Source: Cyanidioschyzon merolae
Taxonomy: Eukaryota
Length of the DNA: 64,000 nt
Direction: 5' to 3' (one strand)
Assembly: GCA_000091205.1 (NCBI GenBank)
Contig: AP006502.2
Positions 1-64,000 of the stretch are shown here, piece by piece. Every line of letters starts with the position of its first letter. The first letter of the stretch is position 1. The translations under genes and the position numbers were made by a program. The notes under the pieces are model-generated. The model was not told the origin of the DNA. It was given only the letters and a program-made list of their open reading frames with translations, and did no database searches.

Positions 1-99
1 TCCTCGCAGCATTGGATTCTTCCAACAAATTAATCTGTTTACAAATCCCATATTTGATCGTAGTTGCAACGAAATCGACAAAGTTGTTCGCACCTGTTC

Positions 100-600
100 C
101 ACCAGCGCTAAAGCGACGCGACACAGCAACGCGGAAATCATCAGTGGAGCGAACAATGCCTCGCACCCATGGGCGGCAAATACAGACACTCACGCGCAGA
201 CGCTTCCCAGACTTTTTAGACCGGCAGTCCGGTATCGGCGGCAGCTCTTGCGTCTACAAGTTGAGCATCAGAGGCTGCACTACAAAGTCGGATCGCGCCT
301 GCTCCTCGGGTCTCGTCCTCAGCACCGCACATCGTATGATATTGGTGGCGGCGTTCAAGTCTCGGTTCACGAACTCCATGTCTGCATCGACGCTGGTTGA
401 ACGCACCATGGCGAGGAATCGTCGAACTCGTGCCCTCTGTGCCAATTGGTGCACTGTCAGCTCTGCATGCTTTTCTATCGCCGAAGCGCTGCGCGGCTTT
501 CGCTGCATGTCGTCCTTCTGAAACGTACACCCCAGGTCATCGCTTAATTTTTAAAATGCGCGCACCTGCTTATGCCCTTAGGTGAGGAGCCTCCCACTGG
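100..600 (-). mobile_element. Relic fragment (copy a) of a TnpB/Fanzor-like element, covering the RuvC-III region and 3-prime module; the window start may truncate it.
   Basis: The minus-strand ORF 254..508 encodes MEFVNRDLNAATNIIRCAVL, matching the TnpB/Cas12 RuvC-III signature D-x-N-A-A-x-N-I. Its DNA aligns with 37690-37960 (copy c), for example CGCGCAGACGCTTCCCA...TTTTTAGACCGG and CAGCACCGCACATCG...CGGTTCACGAACT. The frame is disrupted and no RuvC-I or RuvC-II lies upstream. Confidence 0.5.
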
Positions 601-2905: not shown

Positions 2906-4078
2906 TCAACTCGCGATGCGCAAATTCGCGTGCAGCGACGCTACATCTTCGATGAGCTTGGCGAGCTCCTCTACTTTTTCCCATTCGCTGGCCTCGATTT
3001 CTGGCTGAGCGAAGATGAGCAAAATGAGTGCGCTATTCTGGGTTGTGCTGTCCATGGAAGCGACGGAATAGAGCCCTCCAATGCTGCTTGTGTCCGTGGT
3101 TTCGTCGTCCTCGCTCTCGCCGACATACAGACGACGGATGAGAACAAGGCCGCTTTCACTTTCGAACAGCAAATCACGCATCTCGTCACCCTGCACCATT
3201 AGAATCTGCTCCGTGTCATCAATGAGAAACTGAACATTCGCTAGCAGGGCGACCTGGTCTACCGTGGCATTCGAGGCGATGACCTTGTTGCCCCGCAGCA
3301 GAATCGCTCGCTTCACGTTTCGGAGGCGCGTGAACTCTGCCACGACCGCTAGTGCGCTCTTCTGGATCGCGTCTGAAAAGGCGCCGTCGAACTGACGGAA
3401 ACGATCCAAAAGCGTCACGTTCTGGACAAGGCTCCTCGATGAAAACGGGGGTTTGCGTCCGGAGATGCCGGGCACCAGCGACGGCATCGTGACAGCGCCC
3501 CTGGGACTAGCCGTGAAGCCAAGACTCGGCGCTGCCGCCCGAAGCTCACTGTCTATCACGTGATGGACCAGCTCAGGCGCACTTCGAGGTATCGGGGAGC
3601 CTCCGGAGACCTCCGAGGCGTTGCGCATGTGCTGGCTGGGGTGTCCGGGGGCATCCCCGTCGGTCAACGGGCTCGCTGCATGCGCGCTCAGCGAGTCGTC
3701 CGAGGTGTAGCTTCTGCCGTAGGTCGCACTTCTCGAGAACCCTTGTCCGTCCGTGGTCAGGCCGCTCAATAAAACATCTTCAAACATTGTCAGAAAGTCA
3801 TCTAGTAGCTTCGTGGCGACCAAACGTCCAAGTTGGCAAGAGTCAGACAGGTCCTGGAAAAGCGCTGCCGTTATTCTCGCTCGTTTGGCGGTAACCAACG
3901 TCAGGAGCATATCGTCGAACTGGACCTGAGAGATGTTGCGGCGGGTTTGCCGCGTGACAAACTCCATCACCGCCGTCAACAACGAGCCCACAAGCCGTGG
4001 TTGCTCGACAGGCCGTAGCACCGCCTTGCTATAGAGAACGAGACCCGACTGCGAAACGATGAGAAAAGTTCGAATCAT
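2906..4078 (-). CDS. Hypothetical 390-aa protein; the N-terminus (MIRTFLIVSQSGLVLYSKAV) resembles the first longin domain of Mon1/Fuzzy/HPS1-type tri-longin proteins, but product assignment is weak.
   Basis: A long clean ORF with ATG at 4076-4078. The N-terminal hydrophobic-S-x-S-G-x-hydrophobic-Y-S-K pattern is recalled from longin-domain RabGEF subunits; I could not verify other motifs. Confidence 0.4.
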   Translation of the reverse strand: MIRTFLIVSQSGLVLYSKAVLRPVEQPRLVGSLLTAVMEFVTRQTRRNISQVQFDDMLLTLVTAKRARITAALFQDLSDSCQLGRLVATKLLDDFLTMFEDVLLSGLTTDGQGFSRSATYGRSYTSDDSLSAHAASPLTDGDAPGHPSQHMRNASEVSGGSPIPRSAPELVHHVIDSELRAAAPSLGFTASPRGAVTMPSLVPGISGRKPPFSSRSLVQNVTLLDRFRQFDGAFSDAIQKSALAVVAEFTRLRNVKRAILLRGNKVIASNATVDQVALLANVQFLIDDTEQILMVQGDEMRDLLFESESGLVLIRRLYVGESEDDETTDTSSIGGLYSVASMDSTTQNSALILLIFAQPEIEASEWEKVEELAKLIEDVASLHANLRIAS

Positions 4079-14902: not shown

Positions 14903-15892
14903 TTTTTTACGCAGCTTGAGCGTCAAATCGAATACGGTATTACAGAACACCCCAAGGGTCGATAGCGTAAGTAACGCTTCGAACGGAATCGCTCGAGGTC
15001 GGATGCGTTCGAGAGATTTGCCCGCGCATCTGGCGTCGCGATCTCCGCGTTGGACCTCCGGAAGATTCCCTGCGAAGCGCTGCGATACCCGTTACATGTT
15101 CTTTTGCGTGGACGAAACGTTACCATTGATGCGGGGTGTCGGCCTGCAGGCTGCGTACGGGTAATCGAGAAGGCGTCTATCATGCAGCGCGCTGCGTTCA
15201 AGTTCCACGGTTCATAATTTCCTCTGTAATATTCAGGTCATTGCTTGCGTGCGATCGGGTGCAGAATACCTGCCTTGCTGCTCTCGACACAGTATCTATA
15301 CCGGTGGTGCGGTTGCAGCACGGAGACAGACGGGCTCGGCCGCACCACAGAGGGCGTCGGCTCGAGGAATGCTTCCATCGATAAGGAATCGGGACTCATG
15401 ATCATTCTGGGAGTCTGCACGCTGCCCAGATAGACGCACAGACTGCAACAGCGCGAAGCAAGTCGCTGCGTGATCAGTGCACCAGGGCGAAGCTCGGACG
15501 CATTTTACCCTGTGCTAGTCTTTGGATACACTGCGTTGCGCACAAGCCGCTCAGGTCTCGCCACAGCACCCGGCACTGCTGACGCACACAGAGCGCTCGT
15601 CCAGCAGACTCTAGTAGACTCATCCGGATCGCGAGGCCTTCCTCCTAGAAGGTAAACGTACGAGACCACGGAGATTGCTTCCCCTTTTCAACGTTTACCG
15701 TAGAGATGGAACGAAATTCGTACCGAGTAGCTGGTTCGTAGTCCGTTTCCCTTGCTTTTACCGATCGTGTTGCATCCTGAGAAGATGCGCTGTCGCCGCC
15801 GCCTTTAATGCCGCTGGGCGGATGTTTGAAGCGCATGGCTCGCTTCTGCAGTAATCGCTGTGACGAAAGCGTTGCTCTCCTGTATCTTTAGA

Positions 15893-16262
15893 CAAAGGAC
15901 CCGCGATCCCTAGAGGTGGCTATTGCCGTGTTGCACACTCCCTAGGCAAAGCTTGTCTGATCTGAATATATACGCAAAGGATCCGCGATCCTTAAGGGTG
16001 GCTATTGCCGTGTTGCACACTCCCTAGGCAAAGCTTGTCTGATCTGAATATATACGCAAAGGATCCGCGATCCCTAAAGGGTGGCTATTGTCGTGTTGCA
16101 CACTCCCTAGGCAAAGCTTGTCTGATCTGAATATATACGCAAAGGATCCGCGATCCCTAAAGGGTGGCTATTGCCGTGTTGCACACTCCCTAGGCAAAGC
16201 TTGTCTGATCTGAATATATACGCAAAGGATCCGCGATCCCTAAAGGTGGCCACTTTAGCGTC
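15893..16262. repeat. Minisatellite of about 4.4 copies of an 83-bp unit, each carrying AATATATACG, about 150 bp upstream of the POL5-like start codon.
   Basis: The unit caaaggatccgcgatccctaaagggtggctattgccgtgttgcacactccctaggcaaagcttgtctgatctgaatatatacg recurs at 15893, 15975, 16057, 16140 and 16223 with over 95% identity. Confidence 0.9.
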
Positions 16263-20124: not shown

Positions 20125-23100
20125 TTATGGTTGGAGAAGCTTGCGTAAGCGCTCCTTGTAGGCGTTGCATTCCATTTCCATTTCTGCGAGGCAGATAAGG
20201 AGCTCGTTGTGTTCTTCTCGAAGACGCCAAAGCTCCGCCTCCATGTCCGCAGCGCGCGGATCCACGTGGACTTGTGTGGCGTCCTGCTCTTGCTCCTGCG
20301 CTTTCACCACTGCCGCACCTGTTGCTGGTACTGCTGCTGATGCTGTTGCGAAAGCTGACGACGGCAACCAGGCGTGCTGCGAGCTGTCAGCACCGGATGC
20401 GTCCAGCTCGTTGACGTGCGTTGCTCGCCAGGGTTGCTGTGGTTGCGCCCGCTTGTCGTGGTGGTGCTGCTCGGCGAGTTGCTTGCGCAGCAACATGTTC
20501 TCATCGTGCACCATTTCGACTGCGCTGGCAAGTCGTGACTCGCGGGCAATGAGTTCCTCGATCTGTTTCTCTAGTTGCGCGATGAGGTCGCGCTGTGCAG
20601 CTGCACTGCTTGGCAACTCTGCCGCCGTCTCCATATGCTGGCTGTGGCTCCCTCTGGTATCGTCGGATGGATGCGCTGGCTCCAGTCGGGGCAGGTTCGT
20701 GTCGGTGAGCGCTTCTCGTGAAGATACCTGGTCGTCGCCGTTGTCGTCGTCGTCGTCGTCGTCGTCGTTGGGTGTCCCAGCAAGCACGCTGGCACGAGTT
20801 CCAGAGGCATTTGGATGCTGGGCGTGCTCCCATGCTGCCAAGCGTGCGCGTAGGGCGCTGATACAGGTCTGAAGACGAATGTTCTCTTGGCGAAGATCGC
20901 CGCTCGCCATGCGTTCTTTCACGAGAGAGCGCTGTAGCGCATCGACGGACGCTGGATCCGCTGCTGGGCCGTCCACATCATATGAAGCGCTGGAATCGTT
21001 TTCGGGACTTGCTCGGTACTGGGTTGTTTCTGGCGCTGATGCTTCGTCGAACGCGCGCTTGTGCGATGACGCAAGCGCAATCGTGCGCAGGTGTTCGATC
21101 TCTTCCTCGAGTTCCTGGAGGACTTGTTCATGGACCCGCATCATTTCACGCATACTGGCCTCGTGCCTAGATTCAAGTTCAGCTAACTGCCGTTCATAGG
21201 CATCGCGGACAAGTTGTACTTGATGGGTATGCTGCTCTCCAGCGAACGCTTTGTCAGCCCTGATCGCTGACTCGGCGTGATCATCATCATCATCATGATC
21301 GTCATCGCCATCGTTATCATCGGGGTCGTGCTCACCATGCATCGCTAGCACCGCAGGAACTGGCTGCGGTGAGCGCTCGTTGCGCCTCGCCTCCGAGTCT
21401 GCGACTTGTTCGGTACCCGTAGCACCAGCTGATAGGATGACAGCGCGGATTTGCGCCTGGAGGTTGTCAAACTCAAGTTCACATTCTTGCAATGTTGCCT
21501 GCTGATCAGTGAGCATATCAAGCTGCCGGTCGATTATGGCGAATTGCTTATCCCTCCAGAAGTGAACGGTCGACGCACATGCACTGACCTCGGATGCGGT
21601 CGCGTCTATCACTCCAGTGATCTGATCCGTAAGCGCTCGTCTCCATCGATGATGCTCCGCTTCGATCATATGGATGCGAGCACAGAGTGCTTCCTGTTGC
21701 TCCTCAGCGGTAGCCAGTCTCTGGTTGGTCTGGTGAAGCTCCGCTACGCACTCATCGTGCGCAAGCTGAGTCTCGGCGTGCTCCGCGAGTACTCGGTCCA
21801 GCTGCGATTGCAGTTCGTGGCTGATTTCCTCGTACTGCTTTTCCGCCGCCAGTGCTTCTTCACGCTCCAGGCCGAGGGCATTTTGCAAGTTCTGCACTTG
21901 ACTCTGTAGGTGCTGTACTTGGTCTTCTCGAGATGCAAGCGTTTCTTGCAAGAGTAAAACCTGAGCGCTAAGTTCCTCCAATTCAGCATCGCGCGTTTCG
22001 CTTTTGGATTCGAGCTCGCGATTTCTCGCTTCCAGTTCAGCAAGTTTCTCCCTATCCGCCTGGGCCTGTTCTAAAGAGATTTCCAACTCCCGTCGTTCAC
22101 TCTCAAGCTCTTCGCACCTTCGCGTGATCGTTCGCATGGAATCCTCCAGATCCTCGAGCCGGCGGCGGTCTCTGGTAGCCGCAGTCAACGCTTCTTCGTA
22201 TTCCTCGATGCGAGTCTGGTAGAGCTGCACCAGCTCCTCGAGTCTCTGTAGCTCTGCAGTTTGTCCGTCGCAGTCTGCATGCTGCTCTCTGAGCACAGTG
22301 AAGCTGTGGGAAACCTGCGCTAGATCTTCCTCCAGAGACCGGATACGCGAGTTCAACAACGCCTTCTCATGTACGTGAGCATCCAGTTCGGATTTCAGAT
22401 TTGTGCATGTTTCCTGAACACTTTCGAGACGACTTGCATGCTCCAGCAGAGAGTCTCGTTCGTCACAGACGTTTCGATATTGGGTTTCGAGTTCTGCGAG
22501 TTGCGTTTGCGCTGCTTGCTGGGCTGCTACCGCATGCCCGAGAGACGCGCATTCGCTCCGAAGCCTGTCTCGTTCGTCACAGACGTTTCGATATTGGGTT
22601 TCGAGTTCTGCGAGTTGCGTTTGCGCTGCTTGCTGGGCTGCTACCGCATGCCCGAGAGACGCGCATTCGCTCCGAAGCCTGTCTCGCTCGTCACAGACGC
22701 TTCGATACTGGGTTTCGAGTTCTGCGAGTTGCGTTTCAGACCGACGCAATTCCGCAAATGCATCCTCTAAACGCTGCCAGGATCCAACAGCATGCGAGAC
22801 AGGCCCTGCCTCGGCATACCCAGGCTTCAGATATCCAAACAGTTTCACCGCAGCGTCCTTGAGCGCACCCAGCGCAAGCCCTTTAATCAGTATCTCTTCC
22901 AGTATCAAAACCTCTACCCTGAACGCACCATAACCAGCAGCACGCTCCCGAGCGATTGCCTGATTCTTTCGCAAGGCATAAGCGAATAGTTCGGGAAGCG
23001 CCTCCAAGGGCGCAACACACGTCCCTACCTCTGGTGCAGTGCAGGCACCGACCGTCGTGCGCTGCAGCGTCATCTTCGCTTCTGCACTCCCGGACAGCAC

Positions 23101-26100
23101 CACAGATGCATCGCTGCCACGCGGGATATGTGCTGGCAGGATTGCGCTACACCGCCAGATGCGGGTACACAATGTATCCACGCGAGCCTCCATGGAGCGC
23201 AACGAGGCCAACACATGGACTAGGTCTCCATCGAAGCGATTGGACAGGTTGTGCAGGGCATCGAGGGCGATGCTGAGACGCCCACTTGCTGTCGTACCAG
23301 CAGCGAGCGCATTCGCCGGTGCAACCTCGCACCGCAAACTGTCCCCTGTTACCCAACGATCGATGAGTGCATCTGGAGGTTGATCAGCACTCGGCACACG
23401 CCCAGATACCACCATTGATGCGACTTGGGCTGCTCGTTCACCGCTCACACGAGACGCTGCCTCGAGCTCCGATTCACTGGGCTGCAGAGCGGCAAGCACA
23501 TCTGTTTGCGTGCCCGTCGAGGCCACGTCAGGTCGCTGGTGCTGGTCGTGCGTCGTCACCCGCTCTGCCGCTGAACGCAACGACGCCAGTTCCGTGCGCA
23601 GCGTATCACGTTCCTGTTCAAGTCGAATAACCTGTTCTTCAAGGATTTGCTGTGTTTCATAGGCATCTTCTTCGGATCGTTCCAACATTTTCTGCAGTGA
23701 AACAAGTTGGGTTTCGAGGTCCGCGATACGTTGCTCTCGGGAGCCTGCGTCGATAGCAGGGTCGAACGATGTATCTGCTCGCAGTACGGTAGCGAATCGA
23801 TCCTCGCTCGAAGAACGCAGAGGCGGTGCCTCACTCGCAGGATAGCGCGGACTTGCGGAGCCGCTGCCGCTAGCGTCTTCAGCGGCACTTTCGATCACTG
23901 CATCTGAGGGTGCCCCGTCAGCCCCAGTATTCGTACGATTTTGGGACTGGATGTAGTCCTCGAGCGCTCGCAACCGCTCTCGCAAGTGCGCATTCTCGAT
24001 TCGCACGAGTTCCGATGCGCTATCCTCGCCTCGCTCTGCATCCTCGAACTGGTTCAGGAGAATCATCAACCGCTCATTCTTCTGCCGTTCTTCGGCGAGT
24101 GCGCGTTCCAATATCCTGACATCAGTGATATCGCATGCTGACGACTCTGACGTCTCGTCGATGTACGCGTGCGCTTCGTTGCTTCGGAAATGATCCGCAG
24201 TCGTTCGCTCCGCGGGATCGCGGAAAACTCCACTATGCACGTGCTGTGCTGGCAGAACGCTCGACCCGTCATCGACGTGTGCACCAGCGTTCCTCAGTTG
24301 CTCGTTCTCTAGGGCGAGCGCTTCGCACGCTTTCGATATCGACTCCACATCGCGCTGGCGGCTCTGTAATGCCTGCTCCAGCGACGCCACCTGTTCCGTT
24401 AGTCGCCGTACCAAATCCTCGCGCTCAGTTAACTGGTCACGAACGAGCCTCAGTTCCTCCCTAAAACGCGACTCTGAGCCGCGCAGAAGCGAATCTGCAT
24501 AATCCTGACTCTCACGAAGGCTCCTGCGGAGCATTTCAACTTCTTCTTTGGATGCCAACAGCGCCTCGTCTTGTTTTCGAATCATTCTTTTGTATTCGTC
24601 GAGCTGAGCCACCATATCCTCGAGTTCTCGGATTCGCATCTGCATGGCTCGAATCTCATTTGATGATTTGTTTGTGGTGTCATCGAAGTGCCGGTTATCG
24701 ATAGATAACGAGCCGGGCGTCGCAAACTCCTTTGCGTTTCGAGGTGACGCACTCACCCCAACCTCAGCGGACTTGAGAGTCGAGCCCTGCATCTCGGTAT
24801 CAGAAGGCGGAACCTCTTGCTCCACATACTCGTGAAGAAGGCGTTTTTGGACGCAGTCATATACAGGCTCCATAATGGAGACAAGTTCTTGAGGAAAGAT
24901 ATACATATGTCCAAGTTCTTCAACTAGACCAGATCCTTGACGGGATTCGGTCGTCAAGACGCCTCTCGCGAAGCGTTGTTCCAGCAGCAGTCCAGGAGAG
25001 CCCGTGATCGCCGCTGCAAAGTATGCCGACGCTCGCACATCATCCAAGTAAGAAGCAAAGCGCATCAGTCCAATGCGTTTCCGCACAATACCGACCAGGG
25101 TTCTTGGCGATATCACCAGCGATTCCGCTTCTGCACACTCGAGTTCCATGCACTCGGCGATCGCCAGCGCTGCGAGGCCGCGGATATGCACGAAGAGCAT
25201 ACCTTCAGCACGGCTTCCCGACGATGAGACCAGGTCCATCAGCAGCGGCACATTCAGCGGTGTGGACAAGAACTTTTGGCGTGCTCTGTCTGAAACATAC
25301 AGCCAACAGCACAGGAGCAGCAACAGCGCTAGTCGCACTAATGGAGGACTGTTTTCGCGCACCGCACGCCCCAACGTACGCAGCAGCTTCATAAACAGAG
25401 GCTCACCTGCTGAGCATTCGCCCGTGAGCGCACCAGCACCTAGGACGACACGATATCTAGATACTGGCATCAGCAGCGGGTCCTGGTCGGCCACCGATGA
25501 ACCCTGAGCACAGCAGCGTACCATCCACGACGCCAACAGCGAGCACGCGTACAATACAGCAGCTGGGTCAGCTTCATCGGGCCAGCCGACAGCAACACCC
25601 AGCAGTTCAGAGACAACGCGCTGGAGCGCATGAGCAGTGCGTTCATCGATCGATTCGACGTCCTTCAATACTTCGGAAGCGTGCGGATTACTGGAGGCGG
25701 GATCGACGGCACCACAAGTCTGACGCTTGTCTGCCAACATCCAGGTGAACCAGCACAAGCCTGATTCGCTTTCCAGCCATACCATAGAAAGAAAGCAGAA
25801 CGCTGCTGCTCGCAGCTCCTGTGATGCGTGCTCCGTCATCATGTCCAACACGAATGCAAGAAAAAGCGTATGCACCTCTTTCCCGTTTGGTGCCCGGCTG
25901 GTACGTGCTTGGCTGGAATCATCGACTTCAGCGACAACAACCCAAAGTCCATGCAAGAATGATAGGGTCGCGACGTGATCTCGAGACAGGCGGCCTAAAG
26001 TCAGAAGACCTTGGACAACGACGGCGTCCGCGTTGCGAGCACTACAAATCAAGCGCGCGATGCTCTCTGTAACACCGTAATGGAGACAAAGTGCTCGAGT

Positions 26101-27489
26101 CCGTGGTTCCTTGTTCGTAGACTCGGCGCGCGACAAGTGATCGACTAAACCAATCGTCAAAATCAGGTTGTCCACTTGCACGGGTCGCAGTGCTTTCGCT
26201 GGATGATCAGCCAGGAACAAGAGCGGACAGAGCTTTGGGATGCAACCAGCCTCGGCGAAGAGCGTCGCGATCGCCGGATCACCATCCAGCAAAATATCCA
26301 TAAAAATCAGACAGTCTCGCGTGACCAAGTCCATGACGTCTGACGTGGACGCCAACACCATCGGTACATGTTGTTGCTGTCGTAGACTCTCGTCGGATGC
26401 AGATGTTCTCGCTAGCGACTCTGACTGCGGGCGGCCGGATGCTGGAAAGCCATCCGTATCATCTGTTTCTGAGTTATCGTCGGCATCGCCGTTTTCAGCA
26501 GGTGCGTATCTCCGAGATATCTGAACCTCATCGCTCTGCTCATCGACATGGACACTGACTTCCTCATAGCGTGCCTTGTCGATCATTTCGAACAAAAGTT
26601 CGAAAATATTTTCAAAAGCAAGTATTCTCTGGATTTCCCCGCTGTTGCGCGAGAGCTCCATGACGAGACGGAGGCCGTAGGTTCGTACCACCTCGCGCGG
26701 GTCCCGCAGTAAATCCATCATTCGCGAGACTCCTCGCGGGCAGCGAAGAACGGCTTTCTGTAATGGTGGCAGGGCATGCCTCGCGATATGCGTCAGCAAG
26801 TCGGACACCTGAAGCCGAACGGAGTAGTCACCGTCTGCGAGCAAGTCGAGCAGGCACGGTACAAGACCCAGTCCCGCTCGCTCGGAAGCGGTGACGGGTG
26901 GACTGGCGGCACCGAGCATCATAGACACAGCGGTGCGTATCGTGGACGCTGTGTCGGCACTCCACTTCCGCCAAATGTCTTCGTTTCGGTGCAACGGCGC
27001 AACGGCTTCCTTCGATTGGCAGCTGGTATTGCTTCGACGTCGCACGAGCGAACGCCTCTCTGAAGAGGCGGCCTGCGTGCTGTCCTCGAGCGAGCCCGCA
27101 AGACTCACGGTCGGCGCACAGAGAAGCAGTTGTAGCAAAGCGAGCGTACTTTGGATAAGTTCAGACTCCGTCCTGTCCTGCTCGAGGATAGCTCCCAGAA
27201 GAGGCACGCCCTTCGTTACCAACTCTTCCCGGAGGCTCAGCGCGACCCGCAGCGCTTCTGAGACCTCGTCACAGGCATCAGCATCAGCCTGCTCTAAGAG
27301 CTCGGCGACCTTATCGTCTGCCGCAGTCACCCGTCGGAGCAGGACCTCGACACACTGGAGACGTTCAGAGGGAAACCGCCCACAATGCAGCCGGTGTATA
27401 ATCAGGTCGAGCGCTTCTGTAACACCAGAGGTGGCCGGATTACGGTCAGCTCCAGCAACGTAGCGCGCTGCCTTGGTGATCAAGTTCAT
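20125..27489 (-). CDS. USO1: USO1/p115-like vesicle-tethering golgin of 2454 aa. An N-terminal armadillo-like head is followed by a very long coiled coil with poly-Asp tracts and three perfect 38-aa repeats.
   Basis: The N-terminus ...LGAILEQDRTESELIQSTLALLQLLL parallels the p115 head motif LQTDRSDSEIIGYALDTLYNI. The C-terminal two thirds is heptad-rich (LAELETQYRNVCDERDRLRSE...). DDDDDDDDD tracts are encoded by (GTC)n around 20742-20767 and 21283-21300. The ATG at 27487-27489 was verified. Confidence 0.65.
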   Translation of the reverse strand: MNLITKAARYVAGADRNPATSGVTEALDLIIHRLHCGRFPSERLQCVEVLLRRVTAADDKVAELLEQADADACDEVSEALRVALSLREELVTKGVPLLGAILEQDRTESELIQSTLALLQLLLCAPTVSLAGSLEDSTQAASSERRSLVRRRSNTSCQSKEAVAPLHRNEDIWRKWSADTASTIRTAVSMMLGAASPPVTASERAGLGLVPCLLDLLADGDYSVRLQVSDLLTHIARHALPPLQKAVLRCPRGVSRMMDLLRDPREVVRTYGLRLVMELSRNSGEIQRILAFENIFELLFEMIDKARYEEVSVHVDEQSDEVQISRRYAPAENGDADDNSETDDTDGFPASGRPQSESLARTSASDESLRQQQHVPMVLASTSDVMDLVTRDCLIFMDILLDGDPAIATLFAEAGCIPKLCPLLFLADHPAKALRPVQVDNLILTIGLVDHLSRAESTNKEPRTRALCLHYGVTESIARLICSARNADAVVVQGLLTLGRLSRDHVATLSFLHGLWVVVAEVDDSSQARTSRAPNGKEVHTLFLAFVLDMMTEHASQELRAAAFCFLSMVWLESESGLCWFTWMLADKRQTCGAVDPASSNPHASEVLKDVESIDERTAHALQRVVSELLGVAVGWPDEADPAAVLYACSLLASWMVRCCAQGSSVADQDPLLMPVSRYRVVLGAGALTGECSAGEPLFMKLLRTLGRAVRENSPPLVRLALLLLLCCWLYVSDRARQKFLSTPLNVPLLMDLVSSSGSRAEGMLFVHIRGLAALAIAECMELECAEAESLVISPRTLVGIVRKRIGLMRFASYLDDVRASAYFAAAITGSPGLLLEQRFARGVLTTESRQGSGLVEELGHMYIFPQELVSIMEPVYDCVQKRLLHEYVEQEVPPSDTEMQGSTLKSAEVGVSASPRNAKEFATPGSLSIDNRHFDDTTNKSSNEIRAMQMRIRELEDMVAQLDEYKRMIRKQDEALLASKEEVEMLRRSLRESQDYADSLLRGSESRFREELRLVRDQLTEREDLVRRLTEQVASLEQALQSRQRDVESISKACEALALENEQLRNAGAHVDDGSSVLPAQHVHSGVFRDPAERTTADHFRSNEAHAYIDETSESSACDITDVRILERALAEERQKNERLMILLNQFEDAERGEDSASELVRIENAHLRERLRALEDYIQSQNRTNTGADGAPSDAVIESAAEDASGSGSASPRYPASEAPPLRSSSEDRFATVLRADTSFDPAIDAGSREQRIADLETQLVSLQKMLERSEEDAYETQQILEEQVIRLEQERDTLRTELASLRSAAERVTTHDQHQRPDVASTGTQTDVLAALQPSESELEAASRVSGERAAQVASMVVSGRVPSADQPPDALIDRWVTGDSLRCEVAPANALAAGTTASGRLSIALDALHNLSNRFDGDLVHVLASLRSMEARVDTLCTRIWRCSAILPAHIPRGSDASVVLSGSAEAKMTLQRTTVGACTAPEVGTCVAPLEALPELFAYALRKNQAIARERAAGYGAFRVEVLILEEILIKGLALGALKDAAVKLFGYLKPGYAEAGPVSHAVGSWQRLEDAFAELRRSETQLAELETQYRSVCDERDRLRSECASLGHAVAAQQAAQTQLAELETQYRNVCDERDRLRSECASLGHAVAAQQAAQTQLAELETQYRNVCDERDSLLEHASRLESVQETCTNLKSELDAHVHEKALLNSRIRSLEEDLAQVSHSFTVLREQHADCDGQTAELQRLEELVQLYQTRIEEYEEALTAATRDRRRLEDLEDSMRTITRRCEELESERRELEISLEQAQADREKLAELEARNRELESKSETRDAELEELSAQVLLLQETLASREDQVQHLQSQVQNLQNALGLEREEALAAEKQYEEISHELQSQLDRVLAEHAETQLAHDECVAELHQTNQRLATAEEQQEALCARIHMIEAEHHRWRRALTDQITGVIDATASEVSACASTVHFWRDKQFAIIDRQLDMLTDQQATLQECELEFDNLQAQIRAVILSAGATGTEQVADSEARRNERSPQPVPAVLAMHGEHDPDDNDGDDDHDDDDDHAESAIRADKAFAGEQHTHQVQLVRDAYERQLAELESRHEASMREMMRVHEQVLQELEEEIEHLRTIALASSHKRAFDEASAPETTQYRASPENDSSASYDVDGPAADPASVDALQRSLVKERMASGDLRQENIRLQTCISALRARLAAWEHAQHPNASGTRASVLAGTPNDDDDDDDDNGDDQVSSREALTDTNLPRLEPAHPSDDTRGSHSQHMETAAELPSSAAAQRDLIAQLEKQIEELIARESRLASAVEMVHDENMLLRKQLAEQHHHDKRAQPQQPWRATHVNELDASGADSSQHAWLPSSAFATASAAVPATGAAVVKAQEQEQDATQVHVDPRAADMEAELWRLREEHNELLICLAEMEMECNAYKERLRKLLQP
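22453..22795. repeat. Three tandem copies of a 114-bp coding repeat (38 aa, QTQLAELETQYRNVCDERDRLRSECASLGHAVAAQQAA) inside the golgin coiled coil.
   Basis: gtctcgttcgtcacagacgtttcgatattgggtttcgagttctgcgagttgcg... recurs at 22453, 22567 and 22681 with near-perfect identity. Confidence 0.9.
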
Positions 27490-37544: not shown

Positions 37545-38154
37545 CTATTCGGCTAAGACGATCGTACATACCGACTTGTCATTACCAGAGCGCATGCGGA
37601 GTTGCTTCCGTATCCGGGTATCAAAGCAGCCTGTTCTTTGCGTTAAGGGCTCGGACAATGCCCAGCGAAACATTGAATGTCCCACGACGGTAGAGTGTAT
37701 AAAGACACCCGCGCGCAGACGCTTCCCAACGTTTCTGGACCCACCGACTGCTATCGGTTTCAATTTCTCTTTGCAAACTTGGAGCTTGAGAGGATGTCCC
37801 GCAAAGTTGGCTGGTACCAGCTCCCCGGGTTTCGTTTTCAGCACCGCACATCGTCGGATGCCGTTGACGTGTCGGTTCACGAACTGCATGCGTTTATTGC
37901 ATCTGATGGAACTCACCATTGCAAGGATTCCTAGAACTAGCGCCCTCTGTGCCACTACAGCCTTGTCATCGTCCGGTCGGGCAAACACCTTTTCTTGTCT
38001 GTCTCTCATCGTCATCTTCTTCCTCGTCACGTGCTTATCTTCGCTCGATGGTCGGCGAGATGAGGATTTTTTCGTTTTTTCGGCAGCCGGTGGCGGCGGT
38101 CCTCATGGTTCCCAACTGTCATGTCCATACGTTTCCCACGTCTTTTATATTTGA
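37545..38154 (-). mobile_element. Relic fragment (copy c) of the TnpB/Fanzor-like element, with a degenerate RuvC-III region and 3-prime module, lying just 3-prime of the RPS5 gene.
   Basis: Minus ORF 37545..38030 contains CNKRMQFVNRHVNGIRRCAVLKTKP, a decayed version of VNRD-NAA-NI-RCAVL. Its DNA aligns to copy a (positions 150-420), and an MCGAENETRGAG peptide in frame 37621..37851 parallels MCGAEDETRGAG in copy a. No intact domains remain. Confidence 0.45.
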
Positions 38155-45206: not shown

Positions 45207-45493
45207 TTTCCGCGGACAGTTCCGTTACACCTCCTAGAAAAGAAGGCAATACCAAACTACGTTGAACAGACGGCAGCCGCGCACACCTGTTCGTTTTTGT
45301 TTCCAGTAGCAGCACGTTTCCATGGACCATGGATCCCAGATTGCGGGGTGGATGGATATTGTCTTTCGGGAAAGCGTCCATCGTGATGCATCCTGCCTTA
45401 TCGTTGCATTCCTCGTGATTCCTCTCTGATATACTGGTCGTTGCGTATGTTGTATGGTGCGCCATACCTACTTTGTACACCCCGCACAAGCGT

Positions 45494-46651
45494 TTAAACT
45501 ACTGGAGCGGATGCTGCAAGGCATGCACGGTCACTCGATAGAGTATACGAATCGACCAGTATATCCGAGAAGAAGCATGGGCTATGGGACTCGGAAGTAG
45601 ATGGAATGATGGACGTCTTCCCGCGCATGGCCACACCAAACGCCGTTCGAAAGTCGAACGACGCCAACGGTGTACAGTAGTGGCGGGAAAACCGCGCCCT
45701 AGACAAAACGTCTCCAACTGACGTCCAGACGCCTCCCGCCTTTTTGGACCGGTCACCTACTACTGATTCCAATTCTTTCTCATATAAATCGACTTTGAGT
45801 GATTGTCCAATAAAGTTCTCTCTTGTCAGCTCTGGAGGTCTTTCCTCCAGCACCGCACATTTCCTCATATTGATTGCGGCATTAAAGTCTCGGTTCACGA
45901 GCTCCATCCGTTTCTTGCCATCACTGGTTGTACTTACTAATGCGAGTAGTCGACGAACTTTCGCCCTCCATTCCATTTGCTCTTCCTTCAGCGGTCCGTA
46001 CTTTGCTATTTCCTCAGGGCTCCTCTGGCACTTTTCCATCTCGGCCCTTTGAAGTGTGCACCCCAGTTCATGGTGTGTATACGATGTCCGAAACTCATCT
46101 ATTGGTATCGTAACAGAACGCCCTGCGCACTCCTTGTACACCCTCGTCGTTGGAGCTGGCGTAGTTCCTTTTTGTGTCTTCCAGCACCCTGCTCTGTACG
46201 CTAACACGAGCCTTTGAGTCTTGTCCTCTTTGAGGGCACTCAACTCATTGAAACAATTCGCGAATGCCCGCGGCTTCCCACAATACAAATTCATTCGTAA
46301 ACGTGCCCACCGGGGCTTGGTATACTCCTTCCACAGCGTATCCCAATGCGCCATGCGAACTTCCATGAATTTCCGAAAGGCTTCAAAGTCCGCTCCTCGG
46401 TTAGTCACGTCGCTCAAAGCTTCCAGGTGATCTTTCATTCCTGAATTCCACGTCTCAATTTTCTTTCTCGTATTCATGATTCCCGATTCTCGATAGTATC
46501 TCGCTCTCGAGAACCTCAAAAGACGCATGTGTTTCTGACGTAAGTTACCATCAGCACCATCTTCCGCACGCTTGGGTACAGCGATGGTTACGATATTCGT
46601 ATTCCCAGGGTCCGCGCCAACGACAAAGTCGTTATCTTGCACTTTCTGCAT
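45494..46651 (-). pseudogene. RuvC-domain portion of the copy-B TnpB/Fanzor-like gene; its ORF reads through the ancestral stop into the 3-prime module.
   Basis: Copy C terminates 9 codons after RCAVV (TAG at 60732-34), whereas copy B has CAG at the aligned position and continues more than 100 codons into sequence that is conserved non-coding in the other copies. Confidence 0.55.
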
Positions 46652-47130
46652 CGCAGGATCCGCCTTCTTGTTTTCTTAATGCTTCGTCGCGTCAACGACA
46701 AGGTCGTTATCTTGCACCTCCTGCATCACAGGATCCGCCGTCTTCTCATCTTCATCCTTCGTAATGTCAACAACAAGGTCGTTATTCTCTACCTCCTGAG
46801 TCGCAGGATCCTCTTCTTTGTTTTCTTCATGCTTCGCCGCGCCAATGATAAAGCCGTTATCCTGCACCTCCTGCGTCGCAGGATCCGCCGTCTTCTCATC
46901 TTCATCCTTCGTAATGTCAACAACAAGGTCGTTATTCTCTACCTCCTGAGTCGCAGGATCCTCTTCTTTGTTTTCTTCATGCTTCGCCGCGCCAATGATA
47001 AAGCCGTTATCCTGCACCTCCTGCGTCGCAGGATCCGCCGTCTTCTCATCTTCATCCTTCGTAATGTCAACGACAAAGTCGTTATTCTCTACCTCCTGAG
47101 TCGCAGGATCCTCCTCTTTGTTTTCTTCAT
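46620..47130. repeat. Perfect 150-bp tandem array (two 75-bp half-units; about 3.4 units) inside copy B. It encodes [25 protein letters not shown] / [25 protein letters not shown] and duplicates the segment just N-terminal to RuvC-I.
   Basis: tcttctcatcttcatccttcgtaatgtcaac recurs at exactly 46741, 46891 and 47041. The repeat peptide [17 protein letters not shown] parallels the native [20 protein letters not shown] that opens the RuvC-I block. Copy C has only one unit. Confidence 0.9.
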
Positions 47131-49822
47131 GCTTCGTCACGGGTGCAGCCGAGGGTGGAACTGGACGATCTTTCTTCAACCGCCGATAGTGTACACACAT
47201 GGCTACGCCATCGGTTTCGATCATCCCAGTGAATACCTTTTGTTTGCTGACTTTGAGACGTTTGAAATCGAAGATACTCTTCCAGTACGTCTCCCGGTTT
47301 TCACGGATGAAGTCCTCCCTGCTAACATTGAACCCCGGACTGATCTCCTTCATGATGCCGTAAAGGACGCCTGAATCGATACTCACAAAATACTACTTGA
47401 TGTTGCACAACGGAACCACGTTTAACTGCTTCCCCATTAGGAAAGCCTTCCGTCTCTCCCACTCTTCATTTGTCTCTTCACTCAGCTTCATCTCCGCCTT
47501 GCGTTCGAGTTCACGATTCAGAAACACAAAATAGCGCAGGATGAGGCGATAGTACCTTTCCTTATCTTTTTTTAACTCTGACACCTTTTCTGTTGGATTC
47601 GGTAGCCCCATGACTGCGCCGTGCTCTTGCATAGCCGCACGGATTACAGAAGCTTCATTCGTGCTCTCGTTTGACGCCTTCTTCTCGAAAAATTCGACCT
47701 CATCTTCATGCCTGCGATCTTTCGTGATGGCATCGATAATCGCCCATATCCCCTTGCGTGAGATTCCCGGGTACAGCGCAAACACGGCGCGTATCATGAA
47801 ACGTTCGAGGTTCATCGTCAAATGGTTCTTCAGGTTCGTCAGGTACTTGATGGCCCCGTATTCGTAAATATCCGCGTCACCTGTATACCGAGTACCATCG
47901 AAGCTGTAAAAGAGATGTTTTTCGTGCAGGACGTGCACCCGCTCATTTCCCCTCCGCGCTTCCGCTGTACCAATCGTCATGTGACGAATAAAGGTCTCGT
48001 CGGAAACTCGTTCGGAAGCTCGACTGTTTCCATGTGCGTCATTTCGCGATACATCTCCCCGCCAAATGCACTAGTCCTGACGACACCTTTATTATAGTCA
48101 TGGAGTTCGGCTCAACACGGTTTCGGATGGACTCTCGTAACTTTTTCTTGCACGGAACCTTGATCTGTCCAAGAAGACAGGCTTTCATAACCAGTTCGTT
48201 GTAGTGTGGTCTTTCTTGCAGCCATCGACGTAGGACCTCCCTCCTTTCGGTCCTTCTTCTCTTCCTTTTCTTCTGGACTCGGTACTGTTTTTTGTTTTTT
48301 CTGGCAGCCAGCGACACTTGGCCTCCAGGATCGTCGACTTGGTTTTTGATAACATTTCCTTTTTTATTTTTCTTGAAAAAGAGCGCTCTTTGAACGCTTC
48401 TCCTATAAACCGCGAAAAAGGACTTGAATACACTTATTTGAGGGTTGAAACACGATTCAACTGAAAACTGCAGTTTGCTACGACTTCAACGGAAATAGAA
48501 CTTTTACTTTACTGCTGGATCATAAAGGTTTGGATCGTGTCTCCCTTCAACGGCGACAAGCGCGTCATATCTCATGACTGCCAGATCTCCCAGGTGCGCG
48601 TCTCAACCGCGCTATTTAGAAAAAAAGGAAAGAGACTCACGATTCACGAGCAACGAGCTATCGATTTCTTTCCCCGTCTACATGAAACATTAAAAGGGGG
48701 AAATTTTTTCCGCATGTCCGAAAGTTTAACGTCTAGGCGGAAAGTCGCGCGGGCCGAACGAGTCTGCCAGGCTCGTGCTTCATGCCCCTCCCAGCGGCGG
48801 GTTCTTGAAAGAAACCTGTGCTACTCGTCCACAAAGCAATTCATTCTGGGACTAGGGACAGTTAAGCTGCATCTGGGCATCGCCCTGGTCGCAGTGGACT
48901 CCTAGGATATCGATTCGCGCTGTCGCAGGCAGTAGGTCTGCCAGCGTAGCTTGCAGGCTCCCAGAATGATCATGAACCTCGACCCTGATTCAGCCGTAGC
49001 ATTCCTCGAGTCGATGCGCTCTCTTGTATGGCATGTCGGTTCTCTCTGTCCATGCTGCGACCGCGCCGCCGCTATAGGCGCTATCGCGGACGCTCGCGAC
49101 GGGCAGTCGGCACACGGTCGAACTTGAAAATAATCGGTACCTCCGAGGGAACGTATGGGAAGCGGAACTTGCGAGGAGGGCGCGGAACGATGGAAACCCC
49201 ACAACGCGCGGTTACCGAGCACGCTCTCAGGGATTGCTGCTCTGTGGGTCAACGTTTCGTCCAACGAAAAGGAATCGAGTGTGTCCTTCACGCGCGCCGC
49301 TAGGCAGGTACACTCAACTCGTTCAGTGGTAAAGACGTTTTTCCGACGGTTCACTCGATATATCACAACGCATTGCGAAAATGAGTTGTCACTGACGTGT
49401 CCGTGGACCAGCCAGTTCATGTGCCGTATATGCGCTTTTTCTCAACAGATAGGTGAACGACCTTCCAGGTCCGTGTGGTGCTGTCGAAAGCGTTCCCGTC
49501 GAAACGGTACACATATGATCAAAGCGGGCCTGTTTGGAGGCATTCTAGATGCAGCTCTGGATATTGATCGTAGCTATGTAAATAGTATCCTTGCGAGAGA
49601 GCAGCCTGGCACCGCTGCCGCAACGGCAACCTTTGAATCTTGAACACTCATTCCAGTTTTAGATCAAATTTGACACCCGTCACTGGACGGCCATCGACGC
49701 CTGTCTCAGACGCTTCATCACCGCCGCCACCGACGCCGCTGGGTACCACCGAGCGCTGTACGCTTCAGCGCTCATCTGTGTCTACGACAAGGCGAGCTGC
49801 ACCGGCGCTCGGAACTCGTTCC

Positions 49823-60479: not shown

Positions 60480-62940
60480 GTTCGGGGTGATTGTTTCCGA
60501 ATTGAGGGTTGCGATTTTTATGACGACGACGCCAGCGACAGCAAATGTCTTCCAAAGAAAACGTTGCTGCCAGCGGCGCACAGTAGTGGCGAGTGACCCG
60601 CCCTAGACAAGACGTCTCTAGCTGATGTGCAGACGCCTCCCGGTCTTAATGGACCGGCCACGTACTACGGCTTCCAATTTCTTCTCATATTGATCTACTC
60701 TGCAGGATTGTCAAACAAAGTTCCCTCTTGTCTACCCAGGAGGTCTCGGCTCCACCACCGCACATCTCCGTATATTGATAGCGGCATTCAAGTCTCGATC
60801 CACGAATTCCATACATTTTTTGCCGTCGTTGGTTGAACGTACTAATGCAACTAGTCCTCGAACGTTCGCCCTCCTTTCCATACGCTCCTCCGTCAGCGTT
60901 CTGTACATTTTGACATCCTCGGGACTCCTATGGCACTTTTCCATCTCGAATCTCTGGAGAGTACACACCAGCTCATAGTGTGTATACGATGTTCGGAACT
61001 CATATACAGGTATCGTAACGAGACGCCGTGCGCACTGCTTGTCCACCCTCGTCGTTGGAGCTGGCGTAGTTCCTTTCTTCGACGCTCATCGCCCTGCTCC
61101 GTATGCTACTCTGAGCCTTTGACTTTCATCCTCCTTCAGGGTACTCAACTCATTGAAACAATTCGCGAACGCTCGCTGCTTCCCACAATACGAATTCATA
61201 TGCAGACGAGCCAACCGGGGATTCGTATACTCCTCCCACAGTACATCCCAATGAGCAATGCGAACTTCCATAAATTTCCGAAAAGATTTAAAGTCTGCTC
61301 CTCAGACGGTCACCTCGCCCAAAGCTTCCACGAGATCCTTCATTCCTGTGTACCAAGTCTCGATATTCTTCCCCGCATTCGTTATACGAGATTTTCGATA
61401 GTATGTCGCTCGCGAGAACCTCAAAAGACGCGTATATTTCTGGTGCAAGTTGCCGTTGGAGCAATCTTCCGCATGCTTGGGTACAGCGATGGTTATGATA
61501 TTCGTGTTCTAGGAGTTACTACCAACGACAAAGACGTTCACGTGGGGATTACACGTCCCCTGGCCGTTCTACTTCTTTCCGTGCATCGGTATGGGCGATA
61601 ACGAAGACGGGATAGGACGAAGTACATGCAACCGCTAATAATGTACACATCTGTATACGCCATCGCTATCGATGGTCCCCGTGAGTACTTTTTTTGACCG
61701 GTTTGGGGCGTTTGGAATCGAAATAGTTCTCCCAGCAGGTGTTCCGGTCTTCGCCGGTTACCTCTTTGTTGCTTCCATCGAGCTCAGGACAGATCTCTAT
61801 CATGAAGGCAGAGAGAACTCTGGGGTCGATATTCACAAAACATGACTTGAACTCGCATAACCGGCCGACAATGAAACGCTTCTGGAGAAGACTTCAATGT
61901 CGTTTCTTCCGTCCGTGATTTTTGCCACACTCAAATCCATATCGGCCTCGCGTTCGGGTTCTCGGTCCAAAAAAATGAAGTACGGCAGGATAAAAGGGAT
62001 AAATCTCTCTTCGTCTGCCTTTGATCATACCTGACAGTTTCTCCCTTGAGATGACAAGCCCCGAGACTGAACGAAGTTCTAAACTAGCGGCGCGGATAGC
62101 AGAAGCAGAATTCGTCGACTTGCATGATGTGCTCTTGTCGACGAATATGATCTCCTGTTCATGCTAGCGAGCGTTCTTGAGAATATCGATGATTGGCCGC
62201 ATCCCTTCGCGAAAAAGGCTCGCGTACAGCACAAAGCGGGCGCCTATCGTGAAAAAGACGAAAGATAAGATTTTTTGGTTCCTCGCATTCGTGAGGCAAC
62301 TCAATGCCCTGTATTCGTATCTTTTTACGTCACACCGATGTCCAGCACCATTGACGCGGTAATTGTCGTAAATTGTGAGGGGGGCATCAGCCAGCTCATT
62401 GCTCTTTGATGCTTCCCCATTGCGAGGACTCAGGTGGTTGAAGAAAGTCTTTTTGAAAAATAATTCCGGAAATATCACTTTTGCGATATGCGTTACGTCG
62501 TGATGCAGCTCGATCTGCAAATGCGTCAGTCCAAAAGAAAAGTTACGACCAGACCTGGAGTGCGAATCTACGCGGTCTCTGATAGCGTCTAGGAGCATTC
62601 AGTCGTACGGATAATTGATATGCTGGAGACGACAGGATCACACAACCATATCGTCGTACGGACATCACTCTTGCAGCCTTCGTGGTAGCGCCTCCACATC
62701 TAACTTCTTCTTTTTTCCCTACTCCTCGGAAATAGCTACTACGTCTCGTTTTTTTTCCAATATTCGGCATCCCCGGTCATCCACAACACAACACGTCCAG
62801 TTCCATAAGTGAAAGATGTTTTGGGAGAAAAACTCATCGGACGCTTGTGCGTAGAGCGGCGAATATCGGTTGAATACATTTACTTGAAGATTGAAATACC
62901 ATTGAAGCCAAAACAATACTTTGCTAGGATCCGATCGCAA
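60480..62940 (-). mobile_element. Degenerate TnpB/Fanzor-like element, copy C (subtelomeric), homologous to copy B along its length but fragmented by frameshifts and carrying a single repeat unit.
   Basis: ORF 60732..61046 reads EFRTSYTHYELVCTLQRFEMEKCHRSPED...MEFVDRDLNAAINIRRCAVVEPRPPG. ORF 61086..61271 (MEVRIAHWDVLWEEYTNPRLARLHMNSYCGKQRAFANCFNELSTLKED) matches the copy-B peptide MEVRMAHWDTLWKEYTKPRWARLRMNLYCGKPRAFANCFNELSALKED. ORF 62164..62598 matches the copy-B N-terminal segment. DNA homology with copy B runs from about 60540 to 62935. Confidence 0.55.
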
Positions 62941-63883
62941 GTACAAGAGGCCCCGATAAAGCAGTCGCTCAAGAAGAGGTCATTACCGCGTTTCTATTGA
63001 TCGGCGAGGCGCACGTCGGGTGACGAGACGGCCAGAATTCGCGATGCGTTACTATGGCACACGACATAGAAAATGCCAACTAGTAAATGATATACACAAA
63101 CGGGATAGCAAGTAATATCGCCACCAACCTGAAACCTTAAAAGGAAGAAGTTTTTGCGTATGGCCACACTGTTAGATTAAGCGGAAGGTCTGCGAGCCGC
63201 GAAACCCAACCGGCCAGTCCCCCGTGTGACCCTTCAGTGGCGGGTGATGCGCCGCACCTAACCACCCCAACCGAACGCATTTGATTGTGGAATCATGAGC
63301 GGGTATGCTGCATCAGAATCTCACTTTGGGCAAGGCGGACTTCCAATACAAAACTCCGCGCTATACCAGGCAGAAGAGCTGGAATTAGAGCTTGGAGGCT
63401 TCCAGAAATATAAATAGCACTGATTCCGTGTTGCATGAAACAAGCATCAACCGACGCGCTCAGTAGTATGTGAAAGCTACTGTGCTCCCCAAGAGCATCA
63501 GCACCAGCGATGGAGAAACTTCGGAGGGTGCAGACGGCAGGCATCCGGCGCAGAATAAAAGCGTGAAACGACCAGCAAAGCCGAGAGTAAGTAAAAGCGA
63601 TGCAATGCACAGAGATTGTTCAGCACGATAAAGGATTTTACGAACCAAAAAGACGAAGCGGCGATCTCAGCCATCTGATCAGTGGAAAAATTCTGCAAAC
63701 CAGTAAAAGCAAAACGTCCGAAGTAAATTCCCGATGAATTTGGTATATAATCTATGTCGCGGTAACAGATGCGAAAAAGCCCAGATCGTGCCGCGAGAAG
63801 TGATACACTTGTGGGAAATGAAATAATACACGTCGCTATCAAAGATGCTTTCGCACTAAGATCATCAAACCTATGTGAAACTG

Positions 63884-64000
63884 GGGGAACGGGCGGAGCG
63901 GGGGGAACGGAGGGAACGGGGGGAACGGAGGGAACGGGGGGAACGGGGGGAACGGGAACGGAGGGAACGGGGGAATGGAAGGAATGGGGGGAATGGGGGG
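63884..64000 (+). repeat. Telomere-like G-strand repeat array at the window end: irregular GGGGGAACG / GGAGGGAACG units grading into AATGGGGGG.
   Basis: gggggaacgggcggagcggggggaacggagggaacggggggaacgg...gggggaatggaaggaatggggggaatgggggg runs to the last base, with the G-rich strand 5-prime to 3-prime toward the end. AATGGGGGG is the telomere unit I recall for cyanidiophycean red algae. Confidence 0.6.

Follow-up and report, generated by a model that had tools for sequence, protein, structure and literature searches.

The DNA analyzed here (the window, 64,000 nt) covers the right-hand terminus of Cyanidioschyzon merolae 10D chromosome 20; AACGGGGGG/AATGGGGGG-type telomere repeats close the window end, and six flanking proteins in the window are exact C. 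merolae 10D matches (BAM83514–BAM83530, CMT locus tags). On the minus strand it carries copy B, which aligns to the consensus of the Fanzor1 element CMe-1A at 85.3% identity across consensus positions 70–3169 (blastn, pairwise alignment), and which matches the CMe-1 protein (734 aa) by tblastn at 53–83% amino acid identity in three segments covering residues 1–723. CMe-1A has been described as ~150 copies in C. merolae, ~80% identical to a ~3.2 kb consensus and without TIRs (Bao and Jurka 2013, Mob DNA 4:12, PMC3627910); both the consensus DNA (supplement 2) and the protein used here were taken from the supplements of that paper. Copy B resembles the published element over 3.1 kb at 85%, encodes the CMe-1 protein and comes from the same species and strain, so that similarity to the consensus, coding content and host all place it in CMe-1A. 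At the linker site it carries exactly 450 bp more than the consensus. The main features of the window outside the array are as follows.

49194..45641, minus: copy B, a CMe-1A Fanzor1 element that is close to full length and a pseudogene (blastn and pairwise alignment to the consensus)
48013..48059, minus: two 1-nt deletions, uncompensated, in the N-terminal part of the coding sequence, causing a frameshift (alignment to the consensus)
47393..47395, minus: in-frame TAG (NIK-stop-YF, where the consensus has NIKSHF)
46676..46678, minus: in-frame TAA in array unit U6 (the b units and the CMe-1A consensus read GAA here)
46610..46612, minus: putative RuvC-I catalytic Asp codon (GA-D-PG; motif of Bao and Jurka 2013)
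46094..46096, minus: putative RuvC-II Glu codon (IPID-E-FRTS; hhalign to the DEF/DEY-TS of green-algal Fanzor1)
45887..45889, minus: putative RuvC-III Asp codon (NR-D-FNAAIN; motif, and hhalign to green-algal Fanzor1)
63593..60550, minus: copy C, an older, heavily decayed CMe-1A copy, 72% identical to the consensus, with a single unit at ~61517–61609
188–540, 15165–15742, 37712–37947 and 45314–45514: short CMe-1A fragments (alignment to the consensus)

A single frame runs from 47980 to 45494 on the minus strand of copy B, interrupted only by the TAG and the TAA. The N-terminal deletions, near 48059 and 48013, split the ORF into pieces at 48039–48317 and 47393–47980, a third uncompensated 1-nt deletion lies near 45737 (alignment to the consensus), and no ORF piece corresponds to an annotated C. 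merolae 10D protein. With two stop codons and uncompensated frameshifts, copy B is a pseudogene that cannot yield a full-length protein. Introns spanning the two in-frame stops were ruled out, since the CMe-1A consensus has sense codons straight across both. A 245-aa ORF on the plus strand (46637–47374) was likewise rejected as a gene, being the stop-free antisense of the repeat.

The putative RuvC triad motifs of copy B read GADPGNTN (46618–46595), IDEFRTS (46102–46082) and NRDFNAAIN (45895–45869). When the family alignment was compared with the C-terminal halves of four green-algal Fanzor1 proteins, hhalign returned a match of 98.1% probability (E = 8.5e-14) over 168 columns, from RuvC-II to RuvC-III. 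The C4 zinc finger that forms part of the Fanzor1 motif of Bao and Jurka (PMC3627910) does not appear between RuvC-II and RuvC-III: copy B has no CxxC...CxxC there but reads SYTHHELGCTLQR..EKC, with LALV standing opposite the algal proteins' second CxxC. Volvox VCa-1 likewise does without this finger. So does the published CMe-1 consensus, and its absence from copy B is therefore no argument against the published classification. Scans of the three copy B ORF pieces gave no Pfam family for the RuvC half and nothing significant in NCBIfam, and a PDB profile search returned only spurious (coiled-coil) matches to the acidic repeat. The Pfam and NCBIfam hints were chance matches to that same repeat. 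AlphaFold2 with shallow family alignments yielded poor models, with mean pLDDT of 39.5 and 41.4 for relatives bearing four units (P0019) and one unit (P0073), respectively; the repeat region of the former had the lowest confidence (23–32) and no secondary structure, in a model too poor throughout to carry weight.

Organization of the array in copy B

An earlier note had drawn attention to an in-frame tandem expansion of the segment leading into RuvC-I. Tandem Repeats Finder recovers the array where that note had placed it, as 7.0 copies of period 75 (46613–47138, 74% matches) or as 3.2 copies of period 150 (46651–47136, 95% matches, score 858). The array reads in one frame with the Fanzor coding sequence on either side, its unit length being a multiple of 3, and it carries a net charge of −38 over 176 residues. 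To set the register, the minus strand was cut at every GATCCT (Asp-Pro), which gives six full units and a native seventh.

46613..47138, minus: coding minisatellite of seven 75-bp (25-aa) units, whose a/b alternation produces a 150-bp higher-order period
47110–47036, minus: U1, type a'
47035–46961, minus: U2, type b
46960–46886, minus: U3, type a
46885–46811, minus: U4, type b
46810–46736, minus: U5, type a
46735–46661, minus: U6, b-like, divergent, bearing the TAA
46586..46660, minus: U7, the native unit, running into GADPGNTN (RuvC-I) (translation)
46729..47071, minus: the sole stretch with an exact 150-bp period, 2.3 periods in 343 bp (offset-150 comparison)

The unit identity matrix shows that U2 equals U4 and U3 equals U5 (75/75 in each case), that U1 is identical to U3 at 73/75 positions, with two differences from U5 as well, and that type a and type b units agree at only 52–54/75 (~70%). 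The peptide that the earlier note had singled out as a paralog of the native sequence is the b unit, which matches the native 48 nt at 41/48. Its description of three exact 150-bp periods holds for 2.3 of them, within 46729–47071; the third period carries 3 mismatches. The exact stretch fits the footprint of one recent duplication of a [b+a] pair (U2U3 = U4U5) laid down on an older array, and the pairwise identities bear out the view that the last expansion step was very recent.

In consensus terms, the repeating segment consists of 25 codons, which start at [A/T]KHEExKEA and end at ...VVGA. This boundary bears on what was duplicated: the approach to RuvC-I is repeated, as had been proposed, but the segment stops one codon upstream of the putative catalytic Asp, so that the RuvC-I motif itself was not duplicated. 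The TAA at 46676–46678 differs by one base from the GAA that the b units share with the CMe-1A consensus (AAG CAT GAA GAA), in agreement with the single nonsense change suggested earlier.

Unit number across the CMe-1 family

The published CMe-1 consensus, both protein and DNA, has one unit before GADPG, and the 2013 paper is silent on a tandem repeat, its text containing no instance of the word "tandem" (PMC3627910). Copy C agrees with the consensus in having a single unit, as the earlier note had observed, whereas seven are present in copy B and two to six in most of the metagenomic relatives. When the repeat-bearing ORF was used as a protein query, 172 relatives were found, all in JGI/ENA metagenomes. 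Among those spanning the region, the linker from RRLKxDRP to GA|DPG measures 33 + 25n residues, with n from 0 to 5 (n = 0 in 8, 1 in 13, 2 in 7, 3 in 16, 4 in 6 and 5 in 1). A DNA-level scan of metagenome contigs yielded 80 loci, related copies from hot springs, with extra length measured between conserved anchors, and gave a similarly stepped series in 82 arrays: 4 with no extra unit, 23 with one, 17 with two, 19 with three, 15 with four, 4 with five and 1 with six. Copy B, with n = 6 extra units, is the longest array sampled, the other copies having 1–6 units in all.

These samples are biased toward query-like copies, and repeat-bearing queries favor repeat-rich ones; the protein search was therefore run again with the RuvC half alone as the query. 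It yielded 28 ORFs crossing the whole linker, 7 of them with one unit and 21 with two to six. Arrays also occur in near-full-length ORFs (778 aa with 4 units in L005; 772 aa with 3 units in L025). P0304, which is more distantly related (47% identity), lacks an array. Multi-unit arrays occur throughout the CMe-1 Fanzor1 family and are not special to copy B. The comparison across copies that the earlier note had called for thus returns 1–7 units, variable both between copies and between alleles.

That note had also allowed that the array might be a generic minisatellite, to be recognized by its presence outside the element. This did not prove to be so: all 545 unit matches in 594 kb fall within CMe-1A arrays or at array-internal contig ends, and a minisatellite unrelated to the element was rejected on this basis.

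Most of the units are old. With near-identical arrays collapsed, another array holds the closest relative for 154 of 168 units, which indicates that most units descend from common ancestors in which they already belonged to arrays. Within-array duplicates of recent date are confined to L015, L029, L034 and copy B, and 100% identical pairs to copy B alone. The statement that the element had repeatedly duplicated the junction is accordingly retained for one recent 150-bp step in copy B, but not for the array as a whole, which is largely inherited and belongs to a family in which multi-unit arrays are widespread.

Could the identity of U2 with U4 and of U3 with U5 reflect ongoing gene conversion of an older seven-unit array rather than a recent duplication? 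The length of the exact stretch (343 bp) and the close similarity of U1 to U3 and U5 (only 2/75 different) would be expected under conversion as well. Yet the related alleles are shorter by exactly one period, and the median best identity of a unit is 83% within its own array vs. 91% to units of other arrays, which argues against pervasive homogenization. We therefore consider conversion very improbable and prefer a recent duplication.

Alleles of the locus and the probable order of events

Orthologous loci with 99–100% identical flanks sometimes differ in unit number, as seen in four pairs.

Window and L001: 2 units apart (exactly 150 bp)
L004 and L012: 2 units apart
L032 and L056: 1 unit apart
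L034 and L051: 1 unit apart

At the copy B locus, all 8 alleles of the P0001 cluster have the arrangement a' b a b'(TAA), the extra period being present in none of them, and one allele (P0312) has the 10D amino acid sequence minus one 150-bp period. The sequences used for this comparison are short-read metagenome assemblies, in which perfect 150-bp repeats can collapse, and four contigs of the 594 kb scan begin or finish within arrays; a gain of 150 bp specific to 10D is for this reason not proven. The converse reading, that the third period is an artefact of the reference assembly and that the array in fact comprises five units, like the metagenomic alleles, draws on the same observations, namely that 8/8 alleles are shorter and that P0312 is otherwise identical to 10D in amino acid sequence. 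However, the window matches the 10D chromosome record (1,621,617 bp, ending in telomere repeats), and that assembly was reportedly completed with Sanger reads long enough to cover a 343-bp repeat. Assemblers of short reads, moreover, shrink perfect repeats rather than expand them, which makes the metagenomic contigs the more suspect, and similar differences of 1–2 units are seen at three other loci. An error in the reference is thus highly unlikely, and we take the seven-unit array as real.

The TAA is common to 8/8 alleles of the P0001 cluster, while the TAG at 47393–47395 is absent from two alleles (P0306 and P0307). A copy with GAA at the TAA codon, which the earlier note had suggested seeking, is found in a divergent orthologue at the same insertion site (L026, 91% and 81% identity), where it is accompanied by five different-looking units. 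Another candidate, L083, was rejected as a plain orthologue, as its 5' half and flank are orthologous (96% identical), whereas its 3' half is 87% identical and leads into other genes; L083 is a recombinant or else a contig joined from two sources (a chimera).

From these alleles we infer that the nonsense change in U6 preceded the 150-bp expansion. The element would have been inserted with an array that already had several units; a G-to-T change would then have created the stop in U6, further lesions, the TAG among them, would have followed, and one 150-bp (b+a) duplication would have occurred in the 10D lineage. Because copy B was already dead by that time, this last expansion would have had no consequence at the protein level and would presumably be a neutral event in the DNA.

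Constraint on the array and the proposed explanation

We compared diversity at codon positions 1/2/3 in the array and on both sides of it. Values of 0.136/0.096/0.247 in the 450 nt of RuvC after the array and 0.140/0.118/0.186 in the 300 nt before it contrast with 0.241/0.183/0.211 in the array. The RuvC pattern is the signature expected of purifying selection, and the array lacks its third-position excess. The native unit is the most conserved across the family, with its ...NDFVVGA end at F90 V88 V88 G91 A88 (%), whereas the extra units are relaxed at these sites, with L/F and, at the Gly site, D65/G30; their net charge is −5.7 per unit vs. −2.8 for the native unit. These comparisons reveal that the extra units are weakly constrained. 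The reading frame nonetheless appears to be kept: array lengths are nearly always 75n, or 75n ± a multiple of 3, about 8 of 9 small independent indels are multiples of 3, and stops are rare (15/4975 codons). In-frame indels and rare stops indicate that the arrays passed through translated master copies, so that they may have had selective value; on the other hand, the essential RuvC domain downstream is enough to keep the frame, and a function of the extra units themselves is not required.

The array lies between the T-D-G strand and the G-x-D-P-G motif, that is, in the linker that joins WED to RuvC-I in Fanzor1 proteins. The stretch from T[DN]G to DPG measures 32 to 86 aa across nine other Fanzor1 families (Bao and Jurka, supplement 3, PMC3627910), and this site is therefore generally length-tolerant. 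The linkers of those nine families are of low complexity and their length differences are not visibly tandem units, whereas the CMe-1 linker changes in quantized steps of 25 aa, each unit holding half of the catalytic-Asp strand.

We propose, with a probability of roughly 80%, that the array is a coding minisatellite (VNTR) in a decayed CMe-1A copy, produced by slippage or unequal exchange within a WED-RuvC linker that tolerates differences in length. A 75-bp segment, comprising the acidic end of the WED-to-RuvC linker and the first half of the RuvC-I Asp strand, would have been tandemly duplicated in a family ancestor, and the array would then have lengthened, shortened and diverged, in master copies as well as in elements already inserted. 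The pattern of unit gain and loss suggests replication slippage or unequal exchange as the process. Extra units would be tolerated as a flexible acidic extension of an interdomain linker of variable length, and only the last unit, which adjoins the Asp, would be constrained.

On another reading, selection maintains the acidic 25-aa repeats as a functional module of active CMe-1 Fanzor1 proteins, for example a length-tunable acidic spacer or a nucleic-acid mimic ahead of the RuvC active site, and the array of copy B is its fossil. Most family copies do have at least two units, near-intact ORFs carry three or four (L005 and L025), indels in the arrays are almost always in frame with few stops, and the extra units consistently exceed the native one in acidity. 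The missing third-position excess in an array flanked by RuvC and WED-side regions that have one speaks against such selection, as does a unit number that varies freely from 1 to 7, even among alleles of one locus. Preservation of the frame is predicted by the essential RuvC in any case, common descent can account for the acidity, and the distant relative P0304 has no array. We regard a selected module as unlikely, and slightly less likely again its more specific form, in which an active RNA-guided nuclease lineage would use the array as a tunable element, such as a nucleic-acid mimic with an autoinhibitory role or a spacer fixing the WED/RuvC geometry. Were a functional module nevertheless present, copy-number variation would modulate Fanzor1 activity or transposon spread in Cyanidiales.

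The proposed coding minisatellite has counterparts in other genomes. Mouse L1 ORF1 has a length-polymorphism region whose in-frame tandem repeats differ in copy number between subfamilies and copies. Both cases are in-frame minisatellites in the ORF of a transposable element, although L1 is a retrotransposon with a different protein and unit length, and there is no sequence relationship to the CMe-1A array. Intragenic VNTRs, such as those of yeast cell-wall genes, consist of head-to-tail units in multiples of 3, with allelic copy-number polymorphism that arises by slippage or unequal recombination; the CMe-1A array differs in that its host gene is a multicopy mobile element, so that the variation extends over paralogous copies as well as alleles. 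The element was already known and in-frame minisatellites are of a known kind, whereas the family array, for which no description was found in the literature searched, is apparently undescribed, hidden by a consensus with one unit.

The picture of how Fanzor/TnpB systems work stays unchanged. For practical purposes, the one-unit consensus under-represents the family, which is relevant to any reconstruction or expression of CMe-1 Fanzor1. The WED-to-RuvC-I junction takes up to ~150 extra residues in genomic copies and might offer an insertion site for engineering, if activity is kept. The array also breaks short-read assemblies of Cyanidiales, and its length could mark strains at the chromosome 20 subtelomere.

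Metagenome relatives of copy B and its repeat array

We compared positions 1-4017 of the related metagenome locus L083 (Ga0504776_001505) with window 49810-45641, which contains copy B, the decayed copy of the Fanzor1 element CMe-1A that carries the array of 75-bp in-frame tandem units. The two are 96% identical in the upstream flank and the 5' half but only 87% identical in the 3' half, the change falling at the repeat array, and the genes downstream of the L083 3' half (an ACT/HAD hydrolase, UMP1 and an ABC transporter) are other than those of copy B. In L083, either copies of the element have recombined ectopically or the metagenome contig is chimeric. Two further loci, L022 and L026, have element bodies that are 98.4% identical and arrays that are one unit apart, while an ungapped comparison of 400 nt outside the element gave no match; this is explained by either a recent paralogous copy or a flank indel. 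Four other metagenome contigs (L072, L073, L064 and L005) start within the 75-bp array, that of L072 at the equivalent of window 46935; short-read assemblies break at this array.

Open reading frames and the zinc-finger position

The strand opposite the array contains one long reading frame:

46637-47374 (+), 245-aa ORF antisense to the repeat

This ORF exists only because the antisense strand of the repeat lacks stop codons, and no support was found for it as a gene. Among the metagenome proteins, P0295 (581 aa, JGI) has a CMe-1-like Fanzor C-terminal third that continues into a region with precomputed Pfam matches to methyltransferases (PF13847, PF13649 and PF08241); it is probably a decayed element read through into an adjacent gene.

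The CxxC...CxxC zinc finger of the published Fanzor/TnpB motif is absent from the CMe-1 family, in which THHELGC...EKC occupies its position (copy B 46020-46090; CMe-1 family alignment A5 and A6, an alignment of four green-algal Fanzor1 C-terminal halves). Volvox VCa-1 likewise lacks the CxxC...CxxC zinc finger.

Other repeats and element fragments in the window

CMe-1A-related fragments and further tandem repeats lie elsewhere in the window:

15165-15742, CMe-1A/TE-N2_CMe-like fragment, 5' part only (consensus 59-621, 73%)
15893-16250, tandem repeat with an 83-bp period (4.3 copies, matches 96%)
22453-22736, tandem repeat with a 114-bp period (2.5 copies, matches 98%)
45314-45514 (+), 200-bp CMe-1A 5'-end fragment (consensus 11-205, 77%)

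The fragment at 45314-45514, inverted relative to copy B and ~130 bp past its 3' end (45641), may be TE-N2_CMe-like or a nested insertion. The 83-bp repeat starts ~150 bp after the fragment at 15165-15742. The 114-bp repeat, a further in-frame coding repeat of the window besides the copy B array, lies within a 2454-aa ORF (20125-27489, -), a Uso1/p115-like host gene (BAM83518).

At the window end, 63879-64000 consists of degenerate AACGGGGGG followed by 9-mer repeats AATGGGGGG; together with exact C. merolae 10D protein matches, these terminal repeats place the window at a telomere of chromosome 20.
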